DNA of 19,162 bases from a virus (taxonomy: Duplodnaviria > Heunggongvirae > Uroviricota > Caudoviricetes): positions 1 to 19,162 of IMG/VR virus record IMGVR_UViG_2734482785_000012, one strand, 5' to 3'. Numbering within the stretch: position 1 is the first letter of the stretch; every line of letters starts with the position of its first letter. A model generated the notes under the pieces. It was not told where the DNA came from. It made no database searches and worked only from the letters and a program-made list of their open reading frames with translations. A program made the position numbers and the translations under genes. Positions 482-15,064 of this stretch are shown piece by piece.

Positions 482-510
482 GTGGGTGACGCCCTCACGT
501 CACTGCATTA

Positions 511-538: not shown

Positions 539-571
539 AAACCTTCTGTTATTTTTTTACCATAAACTTCC

Positions 572-597
572 GGGGCGTTTTTACGCCCCTCTTTTTA
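572..597 (+). terminator. Rho-independent terminator downstream of the porin gene
   Basis: GC stem ggggcg / cgcccc (572-577 / 584-589) with a T-rich loop, followed by tcttttta. Confidence 0.5.
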
Positions 598-621
598 TTC
601 AACTTTGTTAGCTAACGTTAG

Positions 622-1247: not shown

Positions 1248-1258
1248 TGTCTGGTTGT

Positions 1259-2650
1259 TCAAAAGAAACGCTCCATCTTACTGCTGTCAGTTCGTTTGTT
1301 GCTGTATCTGCGCGGCTGGGGCTGCTGCATTGGGGTGGAAAGAATCTGTGCGCTTTCCTGATCCACAGGCAGAAAATGTCCGTTATAAAAACGCCGGTAA
1401 ATCGTCCCCAGAGAACCGTTACGTTGTTTCGTGATATTGATTTCTGCGATGCCCCTGGCCTGCGTATCCGGGTTGTACACTTCATCCCTGTAAAGCATCA
1501 GAATGATGTCTGCATCCGCCTCTATTTCTCCGGAATTTTTCAGATCTGAGTTCATAGGTCGTTTATTGGGCCTGGACTCCACACCACGGGAAAGCTGGCT
1601 TAGCGCAATCAACGGAAAACCACCGGATTTTGCCAGGCCTTTAAGCCCCTTTGAGATTTCACCCACGGCAAGGTCATGACGTCCCGTGGTTCGGGTTTTT
1701 ATCAGCCCGAGATAATCAACCACCACCAGCGCCGTTTCCGGATGTTTAATCAGGTGGTGTTTCGTTGTTGCGCATATCTCATCAATCGTCAGGTTCGCCT
1801 GGTCCACCATCCAGATATTGCGCCCGGTCATCCGCCCCACCCCTTGTGAGAAACGTGCCCAGTCTTCGTCTTCAAAGTGAGTGACAGATTTCAGGCGTGA
1901 TACCGGCATTCCTCCAGCCGCAGATACCATGCGTTCACCAATCTGGATGTTCGCCATTTCCATTGTGAACAGAAGAACACCATGCCCCTGCTCAGTTACC
2001 TTGTCGATGATATCCAGCGCCAGTTCGGTTTTGCCCATTGACGGACGAGCCGCAATGAACACCAGGTCGCCGGGTTCCATGCCGCCTGTTTTTGCGTCCA
2101 GTTCATCAATACCGGTCATCAGTGTCCTGGATTTCTCCTGTCCCTGATTCCGGCATTCAACACGCTCAACCACTTCCGGAAGCACATCATCAATATGTAC
2201 CGGCTGAATAGCGCCCTTTTCCGTCGACAATGAAGCCATCATGTTCTGCGCATCCTTCAGGGCATCTTCAGCTGCTTCACAGGTATGCGCATCACGTAAT
2301 TTCTGCAGCGCCTCATTCAGTGTTTTTTCTGCATCACGCAATGCAGCATTGCGCCGCAACGCTGCAACATAGTGCTCCAGTGAAGACTTCACCCAGGTTT
2401 TACGCCCGGTATCAGTAATCACCGGGGCAAGTTCCGGCATCTCATTACACAACAGCACAGGGTCAATCACGCCTGAAACACGGGCCTGTCTGCAGATGCC
2501 TGTGTAGATATCCCGATACGCTCGTACAGAAAAAACGTCTGCCGGCAATGTGGCCAGAATATCCATCACTTCATGATCTGCCCCACGCAGAAAGAACGCG
2601 CCAATGACAGCGCCTTCCAGATCATCGTTACGCCAGACTGGTGTTGTCAT
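1259..2650 (-). CDS. DnaB-family replicative DNA helicase
   Basis: 463-aa ORF with Walker A in the DnaB context (AARPSMGKTELAL), a Walker B-like VVVDYLGL, and a DnaB-like N-terminal domain. Start ATG overlaps the stop of the upstream loader gene (ATGA). Confidence 0.85.
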   Translation of the reverse strand: MTTPVWRNDDLEGAVIGAFFLRGADHEVMDILATLPADVFSVRAYRDIYTGICRQARVSGVIDPVLLCNEMPELAPVITDTGRKTWVKSSLEHYVAALRRNAALRDAEKTLNEALQKLRDAHTCEAAEDALKDAQNMMASLSTEKGAIQPVHIDDVLPEVVERVECRNQGQEKSRTLMTGIDELDAKTGGMEPGDLVFIAARPSMGKTELALDIIDKVTEQGHGVLLFTMEMANIQIGERMVSAAGGMPVSRLKSVTHFEDEDWARFSQGVGRMTGRNIWMVDQANLTIDEICATTKHHLIKHPETALVVVDYLGLIKTRTTGRHDLAVGEISKGLKGLAKSGGFPLIALSQLSRGVESRPNKRPMNSDLKNSGEIEADADIILMLYRDEVYNPDTQARGIAEINITKQRNGSLGTIYRRFYNGHFLPVDQESAQILSTPMQQPQPRRYSNKRTDSSKMERFF

Positions 2651-3525
2651 GCAGCCACACCTCTGATACGAGAACGATAGCTGGGCCAGTTAAACGACAA
2701 CCAGTTGCGTCCCCCGTCTGTGATCCTGTCGGCAATGCGGGGGCTGATGAACGCCCACAACTCTTCCGGTGAAAGGTTGCTGATCAGGATCGTGGGCAAG
2801 ATACTTTCGTACCGGGCATTGATAATTTCCTGCAAAATAGCCATTTCAGCCGCGCTGCCAAACTGAACGCCGACTTCGTCGATGATCAGCAAATCCATTG
2901 ACGCATAATGCTCAATAACTTCATCCGCTGTTTTTTCGCTGTCATTCCGCCAGCAGTTTTTCACAGCACGGGTAAGGCGCATCACATCGGTGATCTCCAC
3001 ACTGGCCAGATAGTTACGGATGATGTGTTTTGCCATTGATACCGCCAGATGATTTTTCCCGGTTCCGCAACTACCAGTCATAACAAGACTGGTACCGTTC
3101 TCCAGCATATCTGGCCAGTTCTCCGCATAGCGGCGACAGGCCGCAAGATTTCTGGCTGCGTCAGGATTAACCTCCAGATAATTATCAAACTCGCAGTCCC
3201 GAAAACGCAGGGCAATTCCGGCGTTATCAGTCAGCTCTTCCGCCTTGATGGACGACAGCCCCATGGTCAAATCGTTGGCCTCAGCGATCAAGCAGTCAGG
3301 GCAGCATGAAATTTTTTCTCTGTCCTCGCCATTGCGATCGCTCCACACCAGTATATGCGTATGGTATTTACCATGTTTTTCGCAATACCCGTGACCTTCA
3401 CGCATCAGGCAGGAACGATAAGTCCATGGCTTTTCGCCCTTCTGAGCAAATGCAATCTCTGCCCGTAACTCATCCATTCGCGCCTGTAGTCTTGTTTGTT
3501 TCTCACGCTGGTTAATCGTCATCAT
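2647..3525 (-). CDS. DnaC/IstB-like AAA+ helicase loader with N-terminal Cys-rich (zinc-ribbon-like) region
   Basis: Walker A MTGSCGTGKNHLA and Walker B LLIIDEVG. N-terminal C-x-n-H and CCPDC motifs. Likely start is ATG at 3525..3523, preceded by GAGGTG overlapping the stop of the O-like gene; the track used GTG at 3534. Confidence 0.8.
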   Translation of the reverse strand: MMTINQREKQTRLQARMDELRAEIAFAQKGEKPWTYRSCLMREGHGYCEKHGKYHTHILVWSDRNGEDREKISCCPDCLIAEANDLTMGLSSIKAEELTDNAGIALRFRDCEFDNYLEVNPDAARNLAACRRYAENWPDMLENGTSLVMTGSCGTGKNHLAVSMAKHIIRNYLASVEITDVMRLTRAVKNCWRNDSEKTADEVIEHYASMDLLIIDEVGVQFGSAAEMAILQEIINARYESILPTILISNLSPEELWAFISPRIADRITDGGRNWLSFNWPSYRSRIRGVAA

Positions 3526-3535
3526 CGCTGTCACC

Positions 3536-4462
3536 TCAGAATGTCAATTTGTCACTGGATTTACCGAATTTGTCAGACATGGCTCCCAGGCCAGCCAGGA
3601 CATCGACCTGTCGCTGTCGCCCACCTCCGGGAGCGGCTGGCTGTTGCCAGAAATCTTCGAAGTGACGATCGGGTCCAAAGAACGTCGCAGCCTGCTTCAC
3701 GAACTGTGTGCCGGTATTTCCTGTAGCACGTACCCAAGCGGCATAACGTCTCACACCATCAAGCATGGTCTCCGGTTTTATTCCCTCCCTGAGACGGGCT
3801 TTCCAGGCTTTGAAGGCTGCCGACTTGGAATTACCACCAGCACGTTTGGGATATTCCTGCCAAGCCTGTTCAAATTCCGGTGAATATTCCTGTCGGGCAG
3901 AGCGCGCTGGTGCAGACGCGTCAGCGGATGCGCCAATATCTTGCGGATCATGTTTTGAATTTACTTGCGGATCATGTTTTAAACCTTGTGGATCTGGGGC
4001 CAGATTCTGAAGGGTCAAAACCGTTTTTTTGCCAGAATCTGAAGGGTCAAACACACCTGAACATTCAGATTCTGACGGGTCAAATTTTGAAGGTTCAGAT
4101 TCTGACGGGTCACGTAATACTGAAAGTCTGCGTTGCTGTTTCAGTTCAGCGACCTTATCCCGCTCCGTTCTGGCAAGCTGCTCAAGCCGATCAGCATTCA
4201 GATGATAAAGATTGGACGTATTACGATTACCTTTGCGACGTGACTGACGCGTCAGCCAGCCATCAGCCTCCAGCTCTGAAATTGCCGTTCTTACTGTGCT
4301 TTCTCCCAACCCAAGCTGTCGGCATATTGTTTCAACACCGGGATAACACACCCCGTCATCATTCGAATAATCAGCCAGACGCGCCATGATCATCAGCTTT
4401 GCACCTTTGACTCCATACGCGGCACATGCATCCCAGACGTTACCGAGAATTTTGCTACTCAC
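3536..4462 (-). CDS. Replication initiator (lambda O-like position) with N-terminal helix-turn-helix and internal repeats
   Basis: 308-aa ORF with GTG start preceded by GGGAGG. N-terminus is HTH-like (GESTVRTAISELEADGWL). The central region has peptide repeats (DPSESEPSKFDPSESECSGVFDPSDSG; KHDPQVNSKHDPQD) encoded by the DNA iterons. Sits immediately upstream of the loader and helicase. Confidence 0.65.
   Translation of the reverse strand: MSSKILGNVWDACAAYGVKGAKLMIMARLADYSNDDGVCYPGVETICRQLGLGESTVRTAISELEADGWLTRQSRRKGNRNTSNLYHLNADRLEQLARTERDKVAELKQQRRLSVLRDPSESEPSKFDPSESECSGVFDPSDSGKKTVLTLQNLAPDPQGLKHDPQVNSKHDPQDIGASADASAPARSARQEYSPEFEQAWQEYPKRAGGNSKSAAFKAWKARLREGIKPETMLDGVRRYAAWVRATGNTGTQFVKQAATFFGPDRHFEDFWQQPAAPGGGRQRQVDVLAGLGAMSDKFGKSSDKLTF
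3941..4113. repeat. Putative phage origin of replication: iterons inside the initiator gene
   Basis: Four copies of cagaWtctgaMgggtca at 4001-4018, 4033-4050, 4066-4083 and 4096-4113 (spacing 30-33 bp), each containing the palindromic tcaga/tctga. Upstream are two copies of ttgcggatcatgtttt (3941-3956, 3965-3980) plus a degenerate third (3986-4001). Confidence 0.6.
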
Positions 4463-4682
4463 ACGGCACCTCCCAGGCGTTTAAACATTTTTCCGGACTG
4501 AAACACCGCCAGAGGGTAACTGATGGTGTAGTTACGCCCCAGTAATTCACACACAACTTTCTGGCTTTCGATACTGACCAGACAAACCCGCAGAACGTGA
4601 CCATTGCTGGTGGTGAACCACTGCCCCACACGGGGCAACGGTTGTATCGGTGATACAGAGAATTCACAACGCGACGAATCAT
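4455..4682 (-). CDS. Hypothetical small protein (75 aa, Trp/Cys-rich)
   Basis: ATG at 4682..4680 preceded by GGAGGTG. Stop overlaps the initiator start by 8 nt. Confidence 0.45.
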   Translation of the reverse strand: MIRRVVNSLYHRYNRCPVWGSGSPPAMVTFCGFVWSVSKARKLCVNYWGVTTPSVTLWRCFSPEKCLNAWEVPCE

Positions 4683-4873
4683 GGACGCACCTCCGCCGTA
4701 GTTACGTATTTAACCGGGCTACCTTTCATTGAGATGGTTTCACACATCTCTGCCGCTTTGCGTTCCGCCGTTTTTCTGGATTTATAGCGGCGGTGCCAGA
4801 CAGATGTATCTGTGCGAACTGATACATCGTTTCTGTATTCCGTTGTGGAAATAATAATTTCGTAACTAATCAT
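4679..4873 (-). CDS. Hypothetical small protein (64 aa)
   Basis: ATG at 4873..4871 preceded by GGGAGG, with near-identical start context to the next gene (tcATGgacgcRcctcc). The track began at an upstream ATG at 4888 that lacks an SD. Confidence 0.4.
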   Translation of the reverse strand: MISYEIIISTTEYRNDVSVRTDTSVWHRRYKSRKTAERKAAEMCETISMKGSPVKYVTTAEVRP

Positions 4874-5232
4874 GGACGCGCCTCCCATTGATTACGGCGG
4901 AAAGCGGTATGACTGAGGCTGTTTTCTGCCTCATGGAATGCTTCAATGCAGCTCTCGTAGTACCGCATTGTGCGCAGACTTAACCCAAGCTGAAGCATCA
5001 TCAGGCCATCAAGGGTGATGTAATAACCACGCAGAGAATCACCATAGATGTGATAAGTGCACGGTATGAAATTGCGGGTAAAAAACTCGCGCGAGCAGTT
5101 CAGATACTCGATTTTGTCGACGATGTTCTGGTGCATGCGCTTAAAGTGGCAGGCAACATGCAGGGAGAAAATAACAGCTTTGCAGTTGACGACTTCGATT
5201 TTGAGGAATGGGGAAGTTGGGACTGTAGCCAT
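4870..5232 (-). CDS. Hypothetical protein (121 aa from the ATG at 5232; the same frame stays open to an ATG at 5532, giving 220 aa)
   Basis: ATG at 5232..5230 is preceded by GGAGG and the codon usage looks coding (TTC, ATC, AAC, GAA). The N-terminal extension 5233-5532 is GC-rich with rare codons, and its start lacks an SD, so the longer model is uncertain. Confidence 0.4.
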   Translation of the reverse strand: MATVPTSPFLKIEVVNCKAVIFSLHVACHFKRMHQNIVDKIEYLNCSREFFTRNFIPCTYHIYGDSLRGYYITLDGLMMLQLGLSLRTMRYYESCIEAFHEAENSLSHTAFRRNQWEARP

Positions 5233-5556
5233 GATGGCAGCCTCCGTATGCAATGGATAACTTCCACCACCGGAGGTTCCAAGCTCGCTGGTGGCGGACT
5301 GAACAGGGTTGGAACGACCGGCGCATACGGAAACCGGCGAGCCTTTCGGCTCCCCTGCCCAGCCCACCATAATTCTGGCGTGCGTGAGCGCGGACGATAA
5401 AAAAGACGCTGGCGCGTCGTATATCGCCGTATGCAATTCCGAGGTTCCAATCCCGGCACCCGCTTTATAAGGTGCGGAGACAGTGTAGCGTCCCGAAATT
5501 GCAGAATCAATATTTAGGCTTGAAACATTCATATGCTTACTGGTATTTTTACTAAC

Positions 5557-5647
5557 GCAAATGTTCTTGGATGTTACTGGCTTACTTCTTTTGTGAAGTT
5601 GCCTTTACTAACGTTGAGCGAGCCGGGTCACTCCCCGGCTTTTTTTC
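5557..5647 (+). ncRNA. Putative short antisense RNA (lambda oop-like arrangement) ending at a plus-strand intrinsic terminator
   Basis: Plus-strand hairpin agccggg-tcactc-cccggct (5621-5640) followed by tttttt (5641-5646); no plus-strand gene ends here. Candidate promoter ttgaaa (5520-5525), 18-bp spacer, tatttt (5544-5549). Predicted RNA of about 90 nt, antisense to the Rha 3' end and the intergenic region. Confidence 0.3.
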
Positions 5648-6395
5648 ACCGCTGCCAACCAATAACCTGAAATAACCCCATTTTCGGGTGATACCAGCGA
5701 GTCCCTCGCGGTTCTACTTCCTCCATAACCCGATAAAAAGCAGCCATAAACGGTTCCACAGCAACAATTGCGCGACGTGACAACAATCCGTCCGGCGTCA
5801 TGAACTCATGTGTGTCTGTAGGAATTTGATAGGCGTTCACCAGATTGCGGCATTTATCATCTGACAAACCGGTTTTCGCTTTCAGTTGGCGATATCCGGC
5901 ATAGCCCTCACGAATGGTGCCCTTTTTGATTTGCTCAACTGTTTCGGCAACGTGGCTGACTTTTTCTTCCACCTGAGTGATCCGTTTCTGCTGACGAACA
6001 GCTTCAAGAGCCATCGCAGCAACCATTTCGATTTCGCTCATTGGTTTACGGATCTGTTCTTCCAGTTCGCGCCAGCGATCTACCAGGCGAGCAGTGAATT
6101 CAGGACAGAGCTGTGCGACGACAATGATGCTGTCGCGCTTACCTTGTTCTCCTTCAAACAGGTAATGCTCATATTGAACTTTAAAACCTAAGTTATTGAT
6201 TCTTTCGGAAACCTCAATTTGAGGAGACCGGACAACGCCACCTTTGGCTAATGTTTCAATAGTGCGTTTCACATTGTCATGACGTTTACCCACCAGCTCT
6301 GCAATTTCAACGCTGGTCATGGATACTTTGCCGTTAAAAATTGCGGTGTTCACTACCATCTCCTTACGGATAAATTCTTTTAAAATTCCGCACAT
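5646..6395 (-). CDS. Phage regulatory protein, Rha family (N-terminal Rha domain plus C-terminal domain of unknown function)
   Basis: Translation contains the Rha-type motif VEIAELVGKRHDNVKRTIETL. True start may be an internal GTG or ATG near 6353-6359, which is preceded by AAGGAG; the ATG at 6395 lacks an SD. Confidence 0.65.
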   Translation of the reverse strand: MCGILKEFIRKEMVVNTAIFNGKVSMTSVEIAELVGKRHDNVKRTIETLAKGGVVRSPQIEVSERINNLGFKVQYEHYLFEGEQGKRDSIIVVAQLCPEFTARLVDRWRELEEQIRKPMSEIEMVAAMALEAVRQQKRITQVEEKVSHVAETVEQIKKGTIREGYAGYRQLKAKTGLSDDKCRNLVNAYQIPTDTHEFMTPDGLLSRRAIVAVEPFMAAFYRVMEEVEPRGTRWYHPKMGLFQVIGWQR

Positions 6396-6472
6396 TCGTA
6401 CTTGTTGGTGTCGAACCTTTCTTCAGTTATCCTTTTGATCCCTATAAACAAAAGAACCAAAGGAGGTTCGAC

Positions 6473-6940
6473 ATGACTTTAAAATCAGTTCACAAGCTGC
6501 TAAAAGAGCATCTTTATACTCTGTATTCGGTTTTGCCTGCGTCCACGAAAGCAATTGAACTTCGAAATCGAACTAGTTGTCGCGCTATTGCTTTAACTTT
6601 TCTTTACCAAGCAATCATGGATTACAAACGCAACCATGCACTGCTAGGCTTATCTTCCCGAGAAACAATCATTCACATGCTTTACGAGGATGCAAAACTT
6701 ACAATTACTGACTTGGAACAAATTCAGCTTTCGCTTGTACTGAAAATTCTTGCTCCCCGTTTTGCGCGAATAGAAGCCAGTGTTTCTCCCGATTTTTCTG
6801 CAATGGTTCAAGACATGACTCAATGGCTTGAAGACAACTCCGAATGGATTTCGAGGTCTCATGAAGCAACTTCAGATCTTCCTGAATTAAAATGGTCAGA
6901 TCTTCCGAACGAGTTGTTTCCACTAACTCTAGGTAAGTAA
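6473..6940 (+). CDS. Hypothetical protein (155 aa)
   Basis: ATG at 6473 preceded by a near-perfect SD, AAAGGAGGT, 7 nt upstream. On the opposite strand to the surrounding early-right operon. Its 3' 236 bp overlap the convergent ORF 6705..7124. Confidence 0.5.
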   Translation: MTLKSVHKLLKEHLYTLYSVLPASTKAIELRNRTSCRAIALTFLYQAIMDYKRNHALLGLSSRETIIHMLYEDAKLTITDLEQIQLSLVLKILAPRFARIEASVSPDFSAMVQDMTQWLEDNSEWISRSHEATSDLPELKWSDLPNELFPLTLGK

Positions 6941-7124
6941 TTTTTTTCGACATATCGTCAAGTACATCTCGTAAACCGTCAGCTAAGGAAGGCAGACGGT
7001 TTACGGCATACCGTAAAGGTCCACCAGAATCCATCTCTTCAGCCGCTTCCGCTAACTCCTTGAGGTAAAGATTTATTTGACGATCAGTCATTCCAGTCGC
7101 ACTAATTTTGATTTTGTTATCCAT
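6705..7124 (-). CDS. Hypothetical protein (139 aa) immediately downstream of cro (cII/YdaT position)
   Basis: ATG at 7124..7122 preceded by GGGAGG. C-terminal part overlaps the plus-strand ORF 6473..6940, so the true 3' end is uncertain. Confidence 0.45.
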   Translation of the reverse strand: MDNKIKISATGMTDRQINLYLKELAEAAEEMDSGGPLRYAVNRLPSLADGLRDVLDDMSKKITYLELVETTRSEDLTILIQEDLKLLHETSKSIRSCLQAIESCLEPLQKNREKHWLLFAQNGEQEFSVQAKAEFVPSQ

Positions 7125-7160
7125 ATTTCCTCCCGCAACCTGCTAAAACAAATCCGTTCA

Positions 7161-7406
7161 TCACTTCTCATCCTCTATATGCGCTAAGCTTGGGTGTGGG
7201 AAAAGTTCTGGTAGATCTGGACGAAATTCATACGCCTGGATCTTTCCGTCGACAGCTGCAACCAATAACGGCACAAATTCGGGTGAAATTTTGTTCTTGC
7301 AGTTAAGCCAATCACAGACTGTTGATTGAGCCTTTCCGCATCGCTTGGCTAAGGCTTGTTGGCTCCCAAGAATCTCAATGGCTTTCTCTATAGCTTTATG
7401 TTTCAT
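7161..7406 (-). CDS. Cro-like HTH regulator (YdaS/Cro family)
   Basis: 81-aa product from the ATG at 7406..7404, preceded by AGGAG. HTH segment LGSQQALAKRCGKAQSTVCDWLN. Divergent from the CI-like gene. The track's longer model starts at 7478. Confidence 0.65.
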   Translation of the reverse strand: MKHKAIEKAIEILGSQQALAKRCGKAQSTVCDWLNCKNKISPEFVPLLVAAVDGKIQAYEFRPDLPELFPHPSLAHIEDEK

Positions 7407-7525
7407 AATCGCATCTCCTATTGACGACATAATATCAATAGGTAATTCGATATTCAACGTTAAACCTAGAAGTTTCATCGGAAAGCCGATAAACTGCCCA
7501 ATATAGAGAGGAGAGGAAGATCACA
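7407..7525. promoter_or_regulatory. Divergent immunity-region promoter/operator (OR-like) between the cro-like and CI-like genes
   Basis: Palindrome cctattga-N10-tcaatagg at 7417-7442. Candidate minus-strand PR: -35 ttgaat (7457..7452), 17-bp spacer, -10 tattat (7434..7429), overlapped by the palindrome. Second palindrome atcgg-aaag-ccgat near 7477-7490. The motif AATAGGTAA recurs at the promoter at 8287-8315. Confidence 0.5.
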
Positions 7526-8218
7526 ATGACATTTTCAGAACGACTTGATTTAGCTATGCGCAACGCAAAATTTACGCAAGGCAGGCTAGCCAAAGAAGTA
7601 GGTATGGCCCAGTCAAGCGTCAATCAATTACTTAACAAAGCCAACGGCTCTAGGAAAACAGTTGAAATAGCAAAAGTTTTGGGCGTTAACCCGGAATGGC
7701 TCGCATCTGGTGTCGGCCCAATGGAAATCGAGACCTCTGCAGACTCACACCAAATACGTAACATTTCAGAAGACAGAGTTACTGATTCGTATGTCGTGGA
7801 TGTTTTAGACATCAGATACAGTTGCGGACCTGGTAGTTATAACTCTGATTTTCCAGACATTGTCAGATCTATAGCGATAGAACCAGGATACGCATCAAGA
7901 GTTTTTGGCGGCAGACCAGCATCAGCAATCAAAGCAATAAACGCCCACGGCGACAGCATGAAAGGCACAATAAACCCTGAGGACTTGGTGTTTGTTGACG
8001 TATCAGTTCGCTCATTTAATGGCGATGGTATATACGCTTTTACATACTCTGGAACATCGCACATCAAAAGGCTTCAAAAAATCAAAGATACCCTAACAGT
8101 GATCTCAGACAATCCAGCTTACAAAGATTGGGCTATCGAACAAGATGACTTCGAGCAACTTCACATTGACGGAAAAGTAATCGTAAGTTGGCCTATGACG
8201 CTACACCGTTTCGCATAA
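7526..8218 (+). CDS. cI: CI-like prophage repressor (N-terminal HTH, C-terminal LexA/S24 peptidase-like autocleavage domain)
   Basis: 230-aa ORF with SD gagaggagagg upstream. HTH segment QGRLAKEVGMAQSSVNQLLN. C-terminal Ser/Lys dyad motifs GDSM and KRL. Confidence 0.85.
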   Translation: MTFSERLDLAMRNAKFTQGRLAKEVGMAQSSVNQLLNKANGSRKTVEIAKVLGVNPEWLASGVGPMEIETSADSHQIRNISEDRVTDSYVVDVLDIRYSCGPGSYNSDFPDIVRSIAIEPGYASRVFGGRPASAIKAINAHGDSMKGTINPEDLVFVDVSVRSFNGDGIYAFTYSGTSHIKRLQKIKDTLTVISDNPAYKDWAIEQDDFEQLHIDGKVIVSWPMTLHRFA

Positions 8219-8240
8219 GCGATAATTATTTAACACCCCG

Positions 8241-8265
8241 CCCACTCCACGAGTGGGTTTTTTTT
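8241..8265 (+). terminator. Rho-independent terminator after the CI-like gene (possibly bidirectional)
   Basis: Stem cccactc / gagtggg with loop cac, followed by tttttttt (8258-8265) and flanked by an A-run on the other side (8266-8274). Confidence 0.65.
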
Positions 8266-8286
8266 GAAAAAAAATCGACAAACCGA

Positions 8287-8315
8287 TTGACACCACAAAT
8301 AGGTAAACCTATTAT
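8287..8315 (+). promoter_or_regulatory. Strong sigma70-type promoter with embedded palindromic operator (PL/OL-like)
   Basis: -35 TTGACA (8287-8292), 17-bp spacer, -10 TATTAT (8310-8315). The spacer and -10 contain the palindrome AATAGGT-AA-ACCTATT (8298-8313). Confidence 0.6.
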
Positions 8316-8364
8316 CATGACATAAGTATCGAACTCACCAAAACAATTATAGAGGATGAGGAAA

Positions 8365-8775
8365 ATGTCATCGTATATGGGGTTACCAACAAATCAACAC
8401 GATGTTCTTGAGAATATTCAACTCTTAGTAGGGGCTGGAGCACTACTGTATAGCAGCAATAACCCAGAGTTAGTTGAACTTGCCAGCTCCATCCTAGCTG
8501 TAACTCAAAAATATAGCCTCGCTGCGTCGCGTTCATGTAAACAAAATTTAGCTATTAATTCACGGAATCGGATTCGTATCCAACGCGAAGCCTGCGGCTT
8601 AACAACCGCCGAACTCGCCAGGCTGCTCGATCTCGATGAAGAAATCATCATCCAGTGGGAGAGCGGAGAGTATGAACCAACTATCAGTATGCTTATCCCG
8701 CTGGCAAATGTTCTTGGTTGCGACCCGATGTGGCTGTTAACCGGTAAACCAACAGCTGAGGATACTTGCGCATGA
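8365..8775 (+). CDS. Helix-turn-helix (XRE/Cro-C1-type) DNA-binding protein, first gene of the early-left transcript
   Basis: C-terminal HTH region GLTTAELARLLDLDEEIIIQWESGEYEPTISMLIPLANVLGCDPMWLLTG. ATG at 8365; the track started at 8356. Stop overlaps the next start (ATGA). Confidence 0.55.
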   Translation: MSSYMGLPTNQHDVLENIQLLVGAGALLYSSNNPELVELASSILAVTQKYSLAASRSCKQNLAINSRNRIRIQREACGLTTAELARLLDLDEEIIIQWESGEYEPTISMLIPLANVLGCDPMWLLTGKPTAEDTCA

Positions 8776-9137
8776 AAAAGTTCGAAAACATAACTGTTCT
8801 CCATGTTGATGAATTTGATTATACAAACCAGGAATTTCTCCCGGAGGTTATAAAAGCAATAGAAGTTGCCGATATAGTGTTTAGAGGAAAGAGAATTGTC
8901 AAAAACAGGCTCGCATGCACTTCAGGAGCAATGACAGAAACAACCTCACAACAAGATGATTATGAAGGCATTTGTCTGGAGCCTGATTCATTTGCGGTAA
9001 ATGTTTATCATTTATTGCATGCAACACAGGTATTACATATGTCCAGTAATCACGAGACAAAAACACTTGGCAGCGAAATTCTGAATTTTGCATGTGAATA
9101 TGCAAAAGCTGCTGCCGAAAAAGAATTAGCACAATAA
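8772..9137 (+). CDS. Hypothetical protein (121 aa), translationally coupled to the HTH gene
   Basis: ATG at 8772 overlaps the upstream TGA. GAGGA lies 9 nt upstream. No motif recognised. Confidence 0.5.
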   Translation: MKKFENITVLHVDEFDYTNQEFLPEVIKAIEVADIVFRGKRIVKNRLACTSGAMTETTSQQDDYEGICLEPDSFAVNVYHLLHATQVLHMSSNHETKTLGSEILNFACEYAKAAAEKELAQ

Positions 9138-9217
9138 CAACAAACATGCCCTGAACGTTTATTACGGTTTTATCGCCGGGGATTGTTACAACCTTTATTC
9201 ATAGAGGGAACTCAGTT

Positions 9218-9331
9218 ATGACTTTCCTGAAAAATAAGGCATCGTATAAAACTGCCTGCCTCATTGCACAACATGGAGATTCTTATCTTCATATAGCCAA
9301 CCTGTATTTGCGCAAAGCATATGGGAGATAA
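9218..9331 (+). CDS. Small ORF (37 aa)
   Basis: ATG at 9218 preceded by agaggg. Stop lies 4 nt before the next start. Too short to judge on composition. Confidence 0.3.
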   Translation: MTFLKNKASYKTACLIAQHGDSYLHIANLYLRKAYGR

Positions 9332-9335
9332 ATAA

Positions 9336-9524
9336 ATGGAAGAAAAACAACAGAACATAACACATGAAAAAGTAAGAGTGTTGCTAACCATTGAAAATGG
9401 GAAAGTAATTTACTCAAAACATCTGTTGGATAATGAATTCGTTGGTTGCATGGATACATTTCTGTGGATGGCAAAAAGAGCTGGCTACACGATTATTCCA
9501 CCAGCAAAGGAGCAAACATTATGA
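9336..9524 (+). CDS. Hypothetical small protein (62 aa)
   Basis: ATG preceded by GGGAGA. Stop overlaps the next start (ATGA at 9521-9524). Confidence 0.45.
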   Translation: MEEKQQNITHEKVRVLLTIENGKVIYSKHLLDNEFVGCMDTFLWMAKRAGYTIIPPAKEQTL

Positions 9525-10102
9525 ATCATTCAGAGTTCCGACCAGTGGTTACGCCACATGGCATAAAAATTGGCAATACAACCATTGATTATGTTGAGGC
9601 CGTACAGCGGCTTAATAATGGTGAATACGATTATCCAAATTCTCACGGTTTAAGAATTATGCAATGTATTGCTGAAGCCGATGATGCCGGATTACTGGGA
9701 CGATTTTCAGTCGATATGAAGGTTGCTCAATGGCGATGGCTGTATGTGACAACATTTATAAATGAAGAGGAAGACAAGAACGGCACTGTTGATATCCCTA
9801 ACGATAATGGAACTACAGCTCGCGCAGTTATTTATAAAGGGAAATATGGTTGTATGGGTATCTACCCAGGATCAATTCGAATTGCCCTGCAAAACCATGT
9901 CGAACGGGGATTTATTGAAAAATATGGCGAAGCTGAAGGCATGGGGCGAGTTCTGTTTCTCTATCAAAAAATGCTCATCGTAGATCCAGGCAATGGCTTC
10001 ATTACCTCTACTATGGGACGCGAAGGACTTGAACTCCTTCTGGATGAAATGATTCACGATCTGAATACTCATGGTATGCCAGAAGCGCCAGTGACACATT
10101 AA
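9521..10102 (+). CDS. Hypothetical protein (193 aa), AT-rich accessory gene
   Basis: ATG at 9521 preceded by AAGGAG (8-nt spacing). The track's longer model starts at 9446. No motif recognised. Confidence 0.55.
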   Translation: MNHSEFRPVVTPHGIKIGNTTIDYVEAVQRLNNGEYDYPNSHGLRIMQCIAEADDAGLLGRFSVDMKVAQWRWLYVTTFINEEEDKNGTVDIPNDNGTTARAVIYKGKYGCMGIYPGSIRIALQNHVERGFIEKYGEAEGMGRVLFLYQKMLIVDPGNGFITSTMGREGLELLLDEMIHDLNTHGMPEAPVTH

Positions 10103-10109
10103 ATATTAA

Positions 10110-10134
10110 GAAGAATATAATTCTTCCGTTTTTT
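10110..10134 (+). terminator. Rho-independent terminator
   Basis: Stem gaagaat / attcttc with loop ata, followed by cgtttttt. Confidence 0.6.
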
Positions 10135-10147
10135 ACTAACCGTTTAT

Positions 10148-10255
10148 ATGAAAAGCAACCGTGAATTAAGCAGAGTAAAACTGCTTTTAATCCTTGCCAC
10201 AGTACTGACACTAACAGAAATCATTATTCTCTTTATTGCGCTGTCAGTCAGTTAA
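10148..10255 (+). CDS. Small hydrophobic peptide (35 aa, single predicted transmembrane helix)
   Basis: Translation MKSNRELSRVKLLLILATVLTLTEIIILFIALSVS. No clear SD, and shorter than the ORF-track cutoff. Confidence 0.3.
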   Translation: MKSNRELSRVKLLLILATVLTLTEIIILFIALSVS

Positions 10256-10278
10256 AAATATCGGGATGCAACAAACCA

Positions 10279-10467
10279 ATGAGATTGTATTTCAGAATAG
10301 TAATTTTACTGGCAATTATCGCATGCATTTACGGACTACTCGTCCCGTTCCTTATATCCATGAAGGATACGGTAGCAGTCATTTCCGGTTTTGCACTGGC
10401 GTTTCTGACCCCGCCCTGCATTTATGCCATTTACAAGGGTCTTTCTTTCACTAAGGATAAAAGATGA
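10279..10467 (+). CDS. Small membrane protein (62 aa, two predicted transmembrane helices)
   Basis: Hydrophobic segments IVILLAIIACIYGLLVPFLI and VAVISGFALAFL. Stop overlaps the start of the SPFH gene (ATGA). Confidence 0.4.
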   Translation: MRLYFRIVILLAIIACIYGLLVPFLISMKDTVAVISGFALAFLTPPCIYAIYKGLSFTKDKR

Positions 10468-11291
10468 AAAAAGTTATTTTTGCTTTAGCCATTGTTCTTC
10501 CGACCATTGGCCTTGTCGGTTGCGATCGCGTTGAACCAGGTAATGTTGGCATTAAGGTAAATAAACTGGGCGACGACAAAGGCGTCGGTGAAGTGGTTGG
10601 CGTTGGCCGCTACTGGACCGGCTGGAATACTGAAGTTTACATCTTCCCGACCTTCAAACAAATGAAGACCTACGATGAACCGTTCAGTTTCCAGATGAGT
10701 GACGGTACAACCATCGGCTATCACATCGGCGTGGCCTACAAGGTTGATCCATCCAAAGTTACCACGGTGTTTCAGACTTACCGCAAAGGCGTGGATGACA
10801 TAACCGATACCGACCTGCGTCAGAAGATCGCCGACGCACTCAACCGACTGGCCAGCAAAATGACCACCGACAAATTTATCGACGGCGGGAAGTCTGAACT
10901 ACTGGATGCAGCTCTTAAAGACATTCAGGAGGAAATGACCCCCATCGGTATTCAGGTAATGAGCCTCTCATATGTGGGTAAGCCGGAGTACCCGTCAACC
11001 GTTATCGACAGCATTAATGCCAAAGTCACGGCGAACCAGAAAACCCTGCAACGCGAACAGGAAGTAAAACAGCGCGAAGCGGAAGCCAACATGTTGCGCG
11101 CGGAAGCTGCCGGACAGGCAGATGCAATTCGCACAAAAGCCCAGGCCGAAGCCGATGCTATTCGTTTACGCGGTGAAGCTCTGCGCCAGAACCCCGGAGT
11201 TATGGAACTGGAAGCCATCAATAAATGGAACGGCATACTGCCGCAATACATGACCAGCGGTGCTAATACACCATTTATCCAGGTTAAATAA
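10464..11291 (+). CDS. SPFH/band-7 (prohibitin/stomatin-like) domain lipoprotein
   Basis: Signal peptide with lipobox LVGC (MKKVIFALAIVLPTIGLVGC). Central SPFH-like domain and a C-terminal Ala/Glu/Gln-rich coiled coil (QREQEVKQREAEANMLRAEAAGQADAIRTKAQAEADAIRLRGEA). SD AAGGA upstream. Confidence 0.75.
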   Translation: MKKVIFALAIVLPTIGLVGCDRVEPGNVGIKVNKLGDDKGVGEVVGVGRYWTGWNTEVYIFPTFKQMKTYDEPFSFQMSDGTTIGYHIGVAYKVDPSKVTTVFQTYRKGVDDITDTDLRQKIADALNRLASKMTTDKFIDGGKSELLDAALKDIQEEMTPIGIQVMSLSYVGKPEYPSTVIDSINAKVTANQKTLQREQEVKQREAEANMLRAEAAGQADAIRTKAQAEADAIRLRGEALRQNPGVMELEAINKWNGILPQYMTSGANTPFIQVK

Positions 11292-11331
11292 CTTATACGC
11301 CCGGCAGGGCGCCGGGCTAAGGAAAGAACAG

Positions 11332-11703
11332 ATGAACACCCAGAATACTCAACAGCAAATAATGAACTATGACCCAAATCTGACGTCGTGCGGACGCATG
11401 GCAAAACAAACCGTTCGATTAACTTTCGGACTATGGGAATACCGCGAAACATTCGAAGTTACTGTCGGTGGCAATCTGACCGGACTGGATGTTATCAGTT
11501 GCGCTATTGAAAGCCTGTACGCAACGCTGCCTTATGAAGAAGTCGAGGATGAGCGCACAGGGGAAACAGATATCATGGCCACCATTAATATTGGCGAACT
11601 GATATGTCAGGATGAAGACCTGTCTGGAGAACTCTGGCTTGCCGGGATGCTTATCTCAGCAGAAATTATCAGTATTGAACCCGCTACAAACATACGGCTC
11701 TGA
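11332..11703 (+). CDS. Hypothetical protein (123 aa)
   Basis: ATG at 11332 preceded by aaggaaag. The track's longer model starts at 11260. Preceded by the GC stem-loop gcccggc-agggc-gccgggc (11299-11317). Confidence 0.5.
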   Translation: MNTQNTQQQIMNYDPNLTSCGRMAKQTVRLTFGLWEYRETFEVTVGGNLTGLDVISCAIESLYATLPYEEVEDERTGETDIMATINIGELICQDEDLSGELWLAGMLISAEIISIEPATNIRL

Positions 11704-11734
11704 AGTTCTCATTATTCAGAGAGCAGGAGAAAAA

Positions 11735-11977
11735 ATGTTCGCTTTGATTAATCAAGGACAACTGTATACCGACAGTGCAGGTTACCCGGTAAAAATTATT
11801 CGCTGCATAAATAACACTGTGTTGTACAGAAGAATGGATGGGCGAACACAGTCGGTAAAACTAAACGATTTTAATGAATTGTTTGAACGGCTCGATCACC
11901 AGGAATACCGACAAATTCTGGCAGAAACAGAACAGGAAACTCATCTGAAGAAATTACGAGCCATGCAAAGGAAGTAA
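11735..11977 (+). CDS. Hypothetical protein (80 aa)
   Basis: ATG at 11735 preceded by gcaggag. The track's longer model starts at 11612. Confidence 0.5.
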   Translation: MFALINQGQLYTDSAGYPVKIIRCINNTVLYRRMDGRTQSVKLNDFNELFERLDHQEYRQILAETEQETHLKKLRAMQRK

Positions 11978-11980
11978 AGA

Positions 11981-12127
11981 ATGAATAAAGCGTTTGAGCT
12001 ATGGGTACGCCAGCGTTACGGCAATCGCTATGACCTGACGCGAGATGTTGACGGTTTCTACTGCCGTGAAATTGTGAAACGAATGTTTGAAGTGTGGTGC
12101 CACTGCCGTGGACTGAATGTTGTGTGA
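11981..12127 (+). CDS. Small ORF (48 aa, Cys/Trp-containing)
   Basis: ATG at 11981 preceded by aggaag, 3 nt after the previous stop. Translation MNKAFELWVRQRYGNRYDLTRDVDGFYCREIVKRMFEVWCHCRGLNVV. Confidence 0.35.
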   Translation: MNKAFELWVRQRYGNRYDLTRDVDGFYCREIVKRMFEVWCHCRGLNVV

Positions 12128-12135
12128 GGTGAACT

Positions 12136-12345
12136 GTGGGGCTGGATTGCGTACCTATATCAACCTACTGCCGCAACGCGGGAGAAACGGTTGATGCCGT
12201 TAACAAACGGATACAAAGAGGAATATGGAAAGAAGGGGTACATGTATTAAAAGTCGACGGGGTTAAAGAACGTTGGGTCGACTTAATGGAGATTACAAAA
12301 TGGGCAAGAAAGAACAAGGATCATTATCTCTCCCCAGAGGAGTAA
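12136..12345 (+). CDS. xis: Excisionase-like DNA-binding protein (Xis position)
   Basis: 69-aa ORF with GTG start preceded by GAGGTG. Winged-helix-like pattern (ETVDAVNKRIQRGIW...VKERWVDLMEITKW). 3' end overlaps the integrase start by 46 nt, as in xis-int pairs. Confidence 0.55.
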   Translation: MGLDCVPISTYCRNAGETVDAVNKRIQRGIWKEGVHVLKVDGVKERWVDLMEITKWARKNKDHYLSPEE

Positions 12346-13472
12346 CTATTCGGCAACATAAAACTGGTAGCACTCTGGTTATCACTTTTACATATAAAGG
12401 GGTTCTGTGTCGGGAGCCCCTCTCCAGAATGGAAGTAAACGCGCGCGGTGTGAAGTACGCCGAGCGTCTGCTGGGAGAAATAAAAAATCAGATTATCGAT
12501 GGTACCTTCGAATATGCAAAATACTTCCCCAACTCCCAAAAGCTGAAGTTGTTCGGGGGAGTGAAAAAAAACAAAAATATAAAATCTTACCTGGATGAAT
12601 ACCTGATTATCTGCCAGAACCGTAACCTGTCACCATCGACAATTAGAGGTTATGAAAAATGCCTGTCGGCGCTGTCAGCATTGCATAAATTTCATGTATC
12701 AGAACTGACACCTGCAGTACTAAAAAACTGGATCGCCAGCAGAAAAACAAAACTGAAAACGATCCGCAATAATCTTTCGTTTCTGCGCAGCGCCATAGAT
12801 GAGGCGGTGACCGATGGTTTGTTAACAATAAATCCTGTCACGCTAGTCAGCGCCAGCCGATATCACGTATTAGACAACACACCAGGCAGTGATGATTACG
12901 AGGTCGATCCTTTTACGCCAGCGGAGACAGCAGCAATCTATGACGCCTGTCATTACCCGGAATGGCGAAATCTATTTCGCTTCGCCTTTAATACCGGGCT
13001 GCGCAGCTCGGAATTGTGCGCATTGCGCTGGACAGATATAGACTTCATCGGCAACACAGCGCATGTCCAGACTGCAAGTGTAGTCGGGGTAATCAAAAGC
13101 ACCAAAACAAAAGCCGGCACTCGCAAAGTACAACTGAACAGCGAAGCGCTGGCAGCTCTTCAGGCACAAAAGCCCTACACGGCGCTAAAAAGCGACTTTA
13201 TATTCAGCGATCCAAAAACTCGCGCCCCTTGGGCAAACGCGGACGCGATCCGAAAAAAAGCCTGGGTGCCGACCCTTAAAAAGGCTGGTGTACGCTATCG
13301 CAATCCGTACCAGACACGCCATACGTTCGCCACTCGGCACATTAGCCAGGGCGTTAACCTGTTCTGGCTTGCTGGTCAGATGGGGCATAAAGGACCGGAA
13401 ATGCTGTTCAGACATTACGGCTCTTACCTTGCAGAATACGATGGAAAAACGGCGATTTCTGCAGCCCCGTAA
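12300..13472 (+). CDS. int: Prophage tyrosine integrase (site-specific recombinase)
   Basis: Catalytic-domain motifs (TGLRSSELCALRW; HTFATRHISQGVNLFWLAGQMGHKGPEMLFRHYGSY with the R..H-x-x-R..Y signature). ATG at 12300; the track used an upstream TTG at 12273. Lies next to the attachment core. Confidence 0.85.
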   Translation: MGKKEQGSLSLPRGVTIRQHKTGSTLVITFTYKGVLCREPLSRMEVNARGVKYAERLLGEIKNQIIDGTFEYAKYFPNSQKLKLFGGVKKNKNIKSYLDEYLIICQNRNLSPSTIRGYEKCLSALSALHKFHVSELTPAVLKNWIASRKTKLKTIRNNLSFLRSAIDEAVTDGLLTINPVTLVSASRYHVLDNTPGSDDYEVDPFTPAETAAIYDACHYPEWRNLFRFAFNTGLRSSELCALRWTDIDFIGNTAHVQTASVVGVIKSTKTKAGTRKVQLNSEALAALQAQKPYTALKSDFIFSDPKTRAPWANADAIRKKAWVPTLKKAGVRYRNPYQTRHTFATRHISQGVNLFWLAGQMGHKGPEMLFRHYGSYLAEYDGKTAISAAP

Positions 13473-13604
13473 CGGCAAAATATTTCAAAATGTTGTACAG
13501 AATCAGGACGTTACAGGGACAGCAATATGTACGTAAAATGCACATAATTCCTTGTTTGAAAAAATAAATCGTTCATATTCAATAAATTGGATTAATCACG
13601 ATCA

Positions 13605-13631
13605 CGGGTTCAACTCCCGCCAGCTCCACCA
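13605..13631 (+). other. ssrA: Attachment-site core: 27 nt matching the 3' end of tmRNA (ssrA); a fragment, not a complete gene
   Basis: cgggttcaactcccgccagctccacca matches the 3' terminus of the E. coli tmRNA as I recall it. Sequence upstream of 13605 diverges from ssrA. Lies between the prophage int and the P4-type integrase. Confidence 0.65.
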
Positions 13632-13796
13632 CTTTTTAGTTGTTTGAAGTTCAATGAAGTCTACTAAGCCCACACAGCACAAGCTCTGCGGGCTTTTTTA
13701 CGTCTATTGTCGTCCAGTGAGAATTGCTGAGAACTACGAGTTATGGCACCCTGAATGGGACCCACTAAGAAGGGTCCAAAAACCGAGGGTCCCAAA

Positions 13797-15026
13797 ATGG
13801 CAAAAATCGCTAAGAAGCTCACTGACACTGAAATCAAAAGCACCAAGCCAGCCGATAAAGAAATCAACTTGTTTGACGGTGATGGTCTGATTCTACGAAT
13901 CGCTCCTTTGGCGAAAGGAGGCAAGAAAAATTGGTATTTCAGGTATGCAGTACCAGTGAGCAAGAAAAGAACCAAAATGAGCCTTGGGACATATCCTCAC
14001 CTTACCCTTGCAAGAGCCAGAGCCTTACGTGATGAATATCTCTCCTTTCTGGCAAATGGTGTTGATCCCCAAATCCATAACAACGATAAGGCGAAGGCAT
14101 TAAAGAGTGCTACTGAGCACACTCTCCAAGCCGTAGCGCGGAAATGGTTAGATGAGAAGGTAAAGACATCAGGTATCTCACAAGACCATGCAGCAGACAT
14201 CTGGCGCAGCTTAGAGAGAAATGTCTTTCCCGGTCTGGGTAATGTCCCTATCAATGAGATCCGACCTAAGCTCTTAAAACAACACCTTGATCCTATTGAG
14301 CAACGAGGCGTATTGGAAACTCTACGCCGTATCATTTCACGTCTGAATGAAATCTTCCGGTGGGCAGCTACTGAAGAACTTATTGAGTTCAACCCGGCTG
14401 ACAACCTTGGTCAAAGATTCAGTAAACCAAAAAAGCAAAATATGCCTGCCCTTCCCCCAAGCGAATTGCCAAGGTTTATGGAATCTTTGACGAATGCGTC
14501 AATCCGGTTGGAAACACGTATGCTAATTGAATGGCAATTGTTGACATGGGTTCGTCCGGGTGAAGCCGTTCGCGCAAGGTGGTCTGATATTGATACAACC
14601 AACAGCATTTGGAACATTCCTGCTGATTTCATGAAAATGAAAAAGCTTCACAAAGTTCCTTTGAGTAAAGAAGCTTTGCGCATCCTTGAATTAATGAAAT
14701 CAATAAGTGGGCATAGAGAATGGGTTTTCCCCAGCATAAAAGCGCCTCTTAATCATATGCATGAACAAACAGCCAACGCAGCTATCATCCGAATGGGGTT
14801 CGGAGGCGAGCTTGTAGCTCACGGTATGCGTTCTATTGCACGAACAGCGGCAGAGGAGTCTGGTAAATTCAGAGCTGAAGTTCTTGAGGCAGCGCTTGCC
14901 CACTCGAAAAAAGATGAAATTATCGCAGCATACAATCGTGCAGAATATCTGATAGAGCGACAGAGTTTGATGCAATGGTGGAGTGATTACGTTCAAGCTC
15001 AAAGATCAAATGCTCTGGTAGCCTAA
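13797..15026 (+). CDS. P4-type (IntA/CP4-57-like) tyrosine integrase
   Basis: N-terminus MAKIAKKLTDTEIKSTKPADKEINLFDGDGLILRIAP is typical of P4-family integrases. Catalytic region has R (VRPGEAVRARW), HGMRS and Y (AAYNRAEY). ATG at 13797; the track's longer model starts at 13755. Lies directly downstream of the tmRNA 3'-end core. Confidence 0.85.
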   Translation: MAKIAKKLTDTEIKSTKPADKEINLFDGDGLILRIAPLAKGGKKNWYFRYAVPVSKKRTKMSLGTYPHLTLARARALRDEYLSFLANGVDPQIHNNDKAKALKSATEHTLQAVARKWLDEKVKTSGISQDHAADIWRSLERNVFPGLGNVPINEIRPKLLKQHLDPIEQRGVLETLRRIISRLNEIFRWAATEELIEFNPADNLGQRFSKPKKQNMPALPPSELPRFMESLTNASIRLETRMLIEWQLLTWVRPGEAVRARWSDIDTTNSIWNIPADFMKMKKLHKVPLSKEALRILELMKSISGHREWVFPSIKAPLNHMHEQTANAAIIRMGFGGELVAHGMRSIARTAAEESGKFRAEVLEAALAHSKKDEIIAAYNRAEYLIERQSLMQWWSDYVQAQRSNALVA

Positions 15027-15064
15027 GTATCAGAATAGCTAATATAATCCTGAAGGTAAAGAAA

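Follow-up and report, generated by a model that had tools for sequence, protein, structure and literature searches.

The region around positions 7407-8315 of the IMG/VR virus record IMGVR_UViG_2734482785_000012 is, judging from sequence comparisons, probably the immunity switch, between lysis and lysogeny, of a phiP27-like lambdoid Escherichia coli prophage, built in the same way as the switches of phages 434 and lambda. The whole stretch that was analysed (positions 1 to 19,162 of the record; 19,162 bp) is referred to as the window. It contains an early region of the lambdoid type, in which the polarity of the cro side (minus strand) and of the PL side (plus strand) is set by the gene content, and because this gene content is lambdoid, the labels OR and OL for the operator regions and PR, PRM, and PL for the promoters are appropriate. 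An earlier note on this DNA, made from the sequence alone, had described divergent cro-like and CI-like genes, one palindrome at an OR-like region and another at a PL-like promoter (TTGACA-17-TATTAT), and a cI terminator; all of these elements were found again where it had placed them, the terminator at 8240-8266. The features of the switch are as follows.

7161-7406, minus strand: cro-like gene, 81 amino acids, helix-turn-helix (HTH) protein of the YdaS family; first gene of the PR-like operon, divergent from cI
7407-7422: candidate operator OR-a, AATCGCATCTCCTATT; at ~+1 to +16 relative to the predicted PR-like start, over the Shine-Dalgarno (SD) sequence of cro; exact pattern match
7417-7442: OR palindrome of the earlier note, CCTATTGA (7417-7424)-N10-TCAATAGG (7435-7442)
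7429-7457, minus strand: PR-like promoter, TTGAAT (7457-7452)-17-TATTAT (7434-7429), with TGn; predicted start at ~7422; from the consensus scan
7437-7452: candidate operator OR-b, AATAGGTAATTCGATA; in the PR spacer; includes the final base of the -35 hexamer and stops 2 bp short of the -10 hexamer; exact match
7455-7470: degenerate site OR-c, CAACGTTAAACCTAGA; both halves of the core have one mismatch each
7467-7495, plus strand: PRM-like promoter candidate, TAGAAG-17-TAAACT, 7 of 12 consensus positions; predicted start at ~7502; SD-bearing leader of ~24 nt
7476-7491: candidate operator OR-d, CATCGGAAAGCCGATA; in the PRM-like spacer; exact pattern match
7526-8218, plus strand: cI-like repressor gene, 230 amino acids; HTH (residues 1-66), linker, S24 domain
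8240-8266, plus strand: intrinsic terminator after cI, 8-bp stem with 5 GC pairs and a T7 run; from the terminator scan
8273-8288: candidate operator OL2, AATCGACAAACCGATT; overlaps the first 2 bp of the PL -35 hexamer; exact pattern match
8287-8315, plus strand: PL-like promoter, TTGACA (8287-8292)-17-TATTAT (8310-8315); predicted start at ~8322
8298-8313: candidate operator OL1, AATAGGTAAACCTATT, AATAGGT-AA-ACCTATT; overlaps the first 4 bp of the -10 hexamer
8356-8775, plus strand: first gene of the PL-like operon, HTH_3 protein, 139 amino acids; in RefSeq relatives the start is at the ATG at 8365

Both control regions carry copies of one repeated unit, the 16-bp pseudo-palindrome wATMG-N6-CKATw, which has the 4-N6-4 geometry of the 434 operators. 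The latter have a 14-bp core, ACAA-N6-TTGT, whose outer 4 bp are conserved and whose central 6 bp are variable. The corresponding 14-bp core of the motif, ATMG-N6-CKAT, has five matches in the 19,162 bp, all of them within the two control regions, compared with 0.99 expected, and none of 200 shuffled sequences reached five, a statistic that is inflated by the definition of the pattern after the window had been viewed. Three of the exact core matches fall within the 119-bp cro-cI intergenic region, where the sites of OR are 30 and 39 bp apart. The notion of a motif common to the OR-like region and the PL-like promoter thus held, and so did the placement of candidate operator sites at both, whereas their number had to be raised by a third site at OR (7476-7491) and a second one at PL (8273-8288). 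The palindrome AATAGGT-AA-ACCTATT noticed earlier at PL corresponds to one 16-bp site (OL1). The shared half-site, which had been given as AATAGG/CCTATT, survives as a core, AATAG/CTATT, but not over its full length: the 7-mer AATAGGT is mildly enriched (5 matches versus 2.06 expected), and a search with the full 7+7 palindrome AATAGGTNNACCTATT as unit, with up to three mismatches allowed, matched OL1 alone, so that a half-site of 7 bp was considered too long and was cut to the core of 4-5 bp.

Since the pattern was defined on the window, the independent tests are those on relatives. Three sets were used: close relatives, represented by five fetched E. coli loci in which the whole N-terminal domain of CI and the HTH of Cro are identical to those of the window, and by a wider set with identical CI residues 1-40; an IMG/VR scan that yielded 80 loci with 69 distinct control-region haplotypes; and four distant relatives (L007-L010; three E. 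coli prophages and one Klebsiella phage). In the distant relatives CI is ~51% and Cro ~75% identical and the recognition helix of CI is the same (VGMAQSSVN), and of the 15 core matches, 14 are located between cro and cI or immediately past the cI terminator. Among the 69 haplotypes the core reaches a density of 14.9 per kb upstream of cI (150 bp examined; ~40-fold enriched) and of 5.3 per kb downstream of it (300 bp), compared with no match in 47.7 kb of cI coding sequence. Elsewhere its density is 0.38 per kb, and most of these matches form pairs that lie further downstream with a spacing of exactly 25 bp and that, as far as can be told from the sequences, are displaced OL pairs. A distant Pseudomonas S24 protein (L006), the only match of a contig scan with CI, was of no use for footprinting.

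The sites also keep their register relative to the promoters. At PL, the -35 hexamer shares 2 bp with a site that has the junction CGAT-TGAC, and the -10 hexamer shares 4 bp with a site ending in CTATTAT or CTATTGT; the spacer of PR is taken up by a site that includes the final base of the -35 hexamer; and on the cI side, a site starts 3 bp after the -35 hexamer and overlaps the -10 hexamer by 2 bp. In two of the distant relatives (L009 and L010) the scan of the immunity region yields three promoter-like sites and no others, and these are the equivalents of PR, PRM, and PL. In the lineage of the window, substitutions around OL are found in the terminator loop, the A-run, the 4-5 bp from the -35 hexamer to OL1, the N6 centers, and the M position, and the ATxG/CKAT cores and promoter hexamers are almost invariant. 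In phiP27 and phi467, which carry other cI alleles, the same layout is combined with other repeats shared between OR and OL (of the GTATCA type and the ATCAAG type, respectively, versus ATMG-N6-CKAT here), so that the repeats travel with the repressor allele and not with the HTH domain of the gene after PL.

The minus-strand promoter that had been predicted to overlap the OR palindrome was found independently by the consensus scan (TTGAAT-17-TATTAT, 7457-7429). Its hexamers are kept in relatives, and its positional equivalent in L009 and L010 reads TTGACA-17-CATAAT (11 of 12). OR-a is invariant across the close relatives, and the equivalent site of the distant relatives reads AATCAcctcagCTATT. 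OR-b lies in the same register as site B of L007, L009, and L010, and the location of OR-c is that of their site C, which is a full site overlapping the PR -35 hexamer; OR-c is nearly invariant in the close relatives, and TAAACCTA is common to OR-c and OL1. The element at 7467-7495 was taken as the PRM-like promoter by position only; a better plus-strand promoter for cI than TAGAAG-17-TAAACT was not obtained in the consensus scan, and its positional equivalents TTGCCA-17-TACTAT (L009) and TTGCCA-17-TAGGAT (L010) were both found by that scan. The core of OR-d is invariant in the close relatives, and an equivalent site is located 43 to 49 bp before the cI start codon in nearly all of the 69 haplotypes.

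A further observation in this region concerns the majority haplotype of the close relatives, which has an extra exact pattern match, AATAGCTTTCTCTATG, at 7377-7392 within codons 5-10 of cro. This extra site lies 30 bp to the left of 7407 and occurs in the haplotypes with the weakened site in the PR spacer. The window has a one-mismatch version at this position (AATGGC...), which together with the sites at 7407 and 7437 makes three sites at 30-bp intervals.

On the other side of cI, the near-consensus promoter reported past the terminator was recovered by the scan at 8287-8315 together with the terminator, and with 11 of 12 consensus positions it is the top sigma-70 match in the whole window. 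Its hexamers are almost invariant in 19 haplotypes (one base differs in two of them), among which the 4-5 bp between the -35 hexamer and OL1 vary freely, and changes in the terminator stem of relatives preserve pairing (CACTCCACGAGTG to CACTCTTAAGTGGG). In the relatives, OL2 varies in its center alone (C/T), and its CGAT-TGAC junction occurs in L007, L009, and L010 as well; variation in OL1 is limited to the N6 center and the M position, where AATAG becomes AATCG. The two sites are 25 bp apart in nearly all related haplotypes. The window's best match to the operator matrix of the distant relatives, TTTCGCATAAGCGATA (8209-8224, across the cI stop codon), could be a weak OL3; as an operator it was rejected, since its sequence is not kept in the majority of close relatives (TTTTGCATAAGCAAAA).

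The first gene after the PL-like promoter encodes an HTH_3 protein (Pfam HTH_3, E 1.1e-11; phrog_4836 "CII-like regulator," E 2.2e-48) and not an N-like protein, as had been noticed before, and the same HTH gene follows cI in phiP27 (L10) and phi467 (annotated "DicA"). Many lambdoid phages lack N, so that membership in the wider group is still allowed. No match to an Rfam family was obtained in 8200-9000, and no terminator-like site was detected on the plus strand from 8259 to 13680 (PL to int), for which reason antitermination may not be needed on the PL arm. The similarity of 92-94% to phiP27, PhiR49_2, and phi467 begins abruptly at ~8573 (8573-8582, depending on the phage) within this first gene. 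This places its N-terminal ~70 codons in the immunity cassette and its HTH domain in the conserved backbone; this may be no more than a mosaic joint, or else the immunity allele and the N-terminal part may be matched to each other.

Both regulators that had been recognized at the switch from the letters alone were confirmed by profile searches. The C-terminal part of the CI-like protein matches Peptidase_S24 (PF00717; E 2e-17, 63.4 bits versus a cutoff of 23.3, residues 127-219) and an HTH precedes it; over its full length the protein matches phrog_4 (E 2.5e-54). Its N-terminal 65 residues align weakly with the DNA-binding domain of the 434 repressor (E 3.7e-4), and matches to Pfam HTH_19, HTH_3, and Phage_CI_repr are under the curated cutoffs. 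In the PDB, the C-terminal domain matched UmuD/UmuD' (8gmt_B; query residues 133-209 versus 49-124 of the chain), with Ser144 (GDSM) aligned to Ser60 and Lys181 (KRLQ) to Lys97 of UmuD. Ser144, Lys181, and Gly101 are invariant in an alignment of five sequences, and the sole candidate scissile bond is Cys100-Gly101 (YSCGPG), which aligns with the Ala-Gly (SAGPG) of L007-L009. Cys-Gly is the UmuD variant of the cleavage site. The CI of phi467 (L091, locus 932-1621), which represents another immunity allele, also has Cys-Gly (FSCGDG) at the scissile position, and Cys-Gly sites may be common among P27-like repressors.

The cro-like product belongs to the YdaS family (Pfam YdaS_toxin, PF15943; E 7.6e-15, 54.9 bits versus a cutoff of 30) and matches phrog_35, a transcriptional repressor (E 8.8e-23), and its sequence matches to solved Cro proteins are weak (3bd1, E 0.008). 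The same 246-nt coding sequence is annotated in RefSeq relatives. In the HTHs of the Cro-like and CI-like proteins 12 of 24 residues are identical, among them AQS(S/T)V, with which the recognition helix begins, and this likeness suggests that both proteins share their operators, as in 434.

In the proposed mechanism, both CI and the Cro-like protein would bind the wATMG-N6-CKATw sites. CI would be made from the weak PRM-like promoter, and its binding to OL1 and OL2 would occlude the -10 and -35 hexamers of PL and shut the leftward operon from the HTH gene through xis and int. When bound to OR-b and OR-a it would shut PR and so silence cro, Rha/Ant, the replication genes, and Q, and OR-d would serve negative autoregulation of CI and shut-off by Cro in the manner of OR3. 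Upon DNA damage, RecA* would stimulate self-cleavage of CI at Cys100-Gly101 via Ser144 and Lys181, which would free PR and PL.

Several observations weigh against the interpretation as a 434/lambda-like switch, besides the inflated in-window statistic mentioned above. The conservation of OR-a is confounded by the SD sequence and start codon of cro, the majority haplotype has a weakened half-site in OR-b (ACAG for ATAG), and OR-c is degenerate; the latter two points make the number of functional OR sites uncertain. The PRM-like promoter is weak (7 of 12) and falls under the scan threshold in the window, and the cleavage site is Cys-Gly instead of the canonical Ala-Gly. A weight matrix built from L007-L010 only fails to single out the sites of the window (scores of 7.3-13, with a mean top score of 11 in shuffled sequences), probably as a result of the half-site extension to ATCGC/GCGAT in the distant lineages. 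Finally, the prophage, of which 19 kb are seen, may be defective.

It is unlikely that the same architecture is induced in the manner of Gifsy by an antirepressor of the Rha/Ant/Ash type, perhaps that of another prophage, with CI being resistant to cleavage or cleaved slowly. The replacement of Ala-Gly by Cys-Gly and the presence of two Rha/Ant-like genes, a C4 antisense RNA, and an isrK module in the PR operon would fit such a scheme. However, the Ser144/Lys181 dyad with its GDSM and KRLQ motifs is intact and aligned with that of UmuD, which itself cleaves at Cys-Gly, and the resident ant-like genes are located downstream of PR, which puts them under CI control and means that they cannot start the induction of their own prophage.

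The earlier note had regarded the 26-bp OR palindrome itself (CCTATTGA-N10-TCAATAGG) as the operator, which as a rival model implies binding of a CI or Cro dimer or tetramer centered on the PR -10 hexamer. The palindrome is indeed perfect over 8+8 bases, exactly centered on this hexamer, and surrounded by a weaker dyad (34-nt arms with 71% complementarity). It nevertheless resolves into the right half of OR-a and the left half of OR-b, which flank the -10 hexamer. The palindrome is degenerate in ~20 relatives. In most close relatives with identical CI residues 1-40 the right arm reads ACAACAGG, which leaves 6 of 8 bases symmetric and makes the perfect form a minority haplotype; the same arm is present in four of the five fetched E. 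coli loci, despite their identical CI N-terminal domain and Cro HTH. Moreover, the half-sites of the OR palindrome point outward, with centers 18 bp apart, whereas those of OL1 point inward at ~10 bp, two arrangements that a single dimer geometry cannot accommodate. The window is not poor in palindromes of such size (perfect inverted repeats with arms of at least 8 and loops of at most 20 nt: ~14 loci versus ~7 matches expected), and the distant relatives have the 16-bp sites but no equivalent of the palindrome. All this makes a role of the palindrome as the actual operator quite improbable. A role at the RNA level was discarded: Rfam finds nothing there, and the predicted PR start (~7422) is inside the downstream arm, so that the hairpin would be outside the transcript.

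There is little reason to regard the motif copies as relics in a decayed, defective prophage whose switch no longer works. Such decay would be in line with the visibility of only a part of the prophage, the degenerate OR-c, the poor -35 hexamer of the PRM-like promoter, and the divergence of segment 6400-7160 from relatives. It is contradicted by the early-region open reading frames (ORFs), all of which are intact in the window, by the near-identity of CI and Cro across ~25 E. coli genomes, and by the intergenic flanks, which vary while cores and hexamers are almost invariant, a signature of purifying selection. The idea that the motif is read by another regulator, such as the post-PL HTH protein (8356-8775), which would autoregulate PL and cross-regulate OR, is barely tenable: this protein has a good HTH_3 domain and similar genes are annotated as "DicA repressor" or "CII-like regulator," but its HTH-bearing C-terminal part has ~92-94% DNA identity to phiP27 and phi467, whose OR/OL repeats and cI differ, and L007, L009, and L010 lack such a gene after PL and yet have the motif and the same CI recognition helix.

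With the region read as a CI/Cro switch, its logic is that of 434 and lambda; the immunity allele is experimentally uncharacterized but presents no novel principle. The switch resembles that of 434 in the alignable N-terminal domain of CI, the 4-N6-4 operators, the recognition-helix residues shared by repressor and Cro, and the divergent cI and cro genes with operators (candidate ones here) inside PR, PRM, and PL. Unlike in 434, the half-site differs and the recognition helix is AQSSVNQ instead of QQSIEQ, the OR sites are 30 and 39 bp apart instead of three being tightly packed, one site is located at +1 to +16 over the cro SD sequence, and Cro is of the YdaS/lambda-Cro type. The arrangement of the PR operon (cro, replication genes, Q), cI, a terminator, and the PL operon up to xis/int is shared with lambda, as are an S24 repressor with a Ser/Lys dyad, sites common to OR and OL, and a Q antiterminator. 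In contrast to lambda, there is no N gene or recognizable nut site after PL, where a leader of 40 nt is followed by the HTH gene, no recognizable cII after cro, and no terminator-like site between PL and int; cI has an SD-bearing leader, whereas that of lambda is leaderless, the cleavage site is Cys-Gly, and OR and OL are separated by ~0.85 kb instead of 2.4 kb.

A YdaS-family protein in the position of Cro and divergent from the repressor is also known from the prophages CP-933P and Rac, the latter with RacR-YdaS (PMC5700373). In CP-933P of E. coli O157:H7, YdaS and the repressor PaaR2 footprint on overlapping PR/PRM operators, which are 18-bp repeats with the consensus GTTTAGTAA, and the YdaS-family protein acts as Cro at OR and at the analogue of PL/OL, the promoter of which is repressed by both proteins (PMC8630535). 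These systems differ from the one described here in that PaaR2 and RacR are not S24 proteins, in that their ydaS is followed by a ydaT (CII-like) gene, whereas the next ORF here has no YdaT or CII match, and in the toxin-antitoxin genes, none of which are attached here.

The synteny of the cro-like gene (minus strand), the cI-like gene, and the HTH gene (both plus strand), followed by the SPFH lipoprotein, xis, and int, is identical in the Stx2e phage phiP27 and in phi467, and the DNA identity to these phages is 92-94% from 8573 rightward; in contrast, the immunity cassette, which comprises cro, cI, OR, OL/PL, and the N-terminal ~70 codons of the HTH gene, represents another allele. The CI recognition helix is also the same in the Klebsiella phages ST13-OXA48phi12.5 and Mulock and in E. 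coli prophages of the L007/L009 type, whose Cro is ~75% identical and whose operator core is the same and in the same register at PR, PRM, and PL. They differ by the ~51% identity of CI, an Ala-Gly cleavage site, half-sites extending to ATCGC/GCGAT, a full site over the PR -35 hexamer, three OL sites in some lineages, cII after cro, and gam-type genes after PL.

It is conceivable, if rather doubtful, that these prophages of E. coli and Klebsiella share an experimentally undescribed lambdoid immunity specificity with 434-like operators, which in the lineage of the window would be combined with a rewired OR, the repressor having a UmuD-like Cys-Gly cleavage site. In the rewired OR, the -35-proximal site would have decayed and a full site would be located at +1 to +16 over the ribosome-binding site of cro, 30 bp from the spacer site. 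If so, the rewired OR and the Cys-Gly site could change the kinetics relative to 434 and lambda by a promoter-escape block and slower induction. The definition of five operator sites with coordinates and a consensus is of modest practical value and may be used for prophage annotation, the prediction of heteroimmunity, and orthogonal repressor/operator pairs for synthetic circuits. It opens no new biological question, and the role of YdaS as Cro already has experimental precedent.

The immunity region was found in 27 of 5,426 complete E. coli genomes with 91-99% identity, in every case on the chromosome. A megablast search of 6400-9400 against deposited phages retrieved none with this immunity cassette, its matches being confined to phiP27-like sequence to the right of 8573, and the nearest deposited repressors are those of Klebsiella phages (51% identical). 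On the minus strand, cro is followed by Rha/Ant-like and Ash/Rha genes and by genes for an O-like initiator, a DnaC-like loader, a DnaB helicase, and the Q antiterminator. The plus strand past the promoter at 8287-8315 carries the HTH gene, several unknown genes, and genes for an SPFH protein, an excisionase, and an integrase. The ends of the two operons are marked by the following genes.

622-1005, minus strand: Q antiterminator, PF06530 (E 7.2e-53), end of the PR operon
PL operon, plus strand: xis, phrog_2917 (E 1.5e-40)
12273-13472, plus strand, PL side: prophage integrase

The segment 6400-7160, which separates cro from the Rha-like gene, is unlike that of the E. coli relatives, in which similarity to the window sets in at ~7159. 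It contains two overlapping ORFs on opposite strands (6473-6940, plus; 6705-7124, minus), neither of which is CII- or YdaT-like, and a perfect 11-bp inverted repeat at 6970-7005. A regulator of the cII type was thus not recognized after cro: the minus-strand ORF has no Pfam match, and its only match, a weak one to PHROG family phrog_37051 (unknown function), has no counterpart in the plus-strand ORF. An annotated cII is present in the relatives L007, L009, and L010.

Further along the PR operon, Rfam revealed a C4 antisense RNA (83 bits; 5287-5374, minus strand) and an isrK Hfq-binding RNA (59 bits; 5399-5475, minus strand), which are arranged back to back within the ORF 4870-5532, assigned to the Ash/Rha family by Pfam and RefSeq, just 3' of the Rha/Ant-like gene. 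The pair looks like a P1/Gifsy-type antisense control module for an antirepressor-like gene in the PR operon, and the "ash" ORF may in part correspond to RNA and not to a protein.

Directly past the prophage integrase, a second integrase of the P4 type (13755-15026) is followed by a pair of large minus-strand genes with HEF_HK plus HATPase_c and Response_reg_2 domains. This region (13755-19021) looks like a separate integrated island with a two-gene system of the conflict or defense type. No tRNA genes were detected in the window. At its other end, beyond the Q gene, the plus-strand ORF 121-429, whose product ends in ...GMVYQF, presumably encodes the C-terminal part of a porin of the OmpC/NmpC type, which it resembles in translation, and the location of such an ORF beyond Q is, we assume, the same as in DLP12-type prophages.

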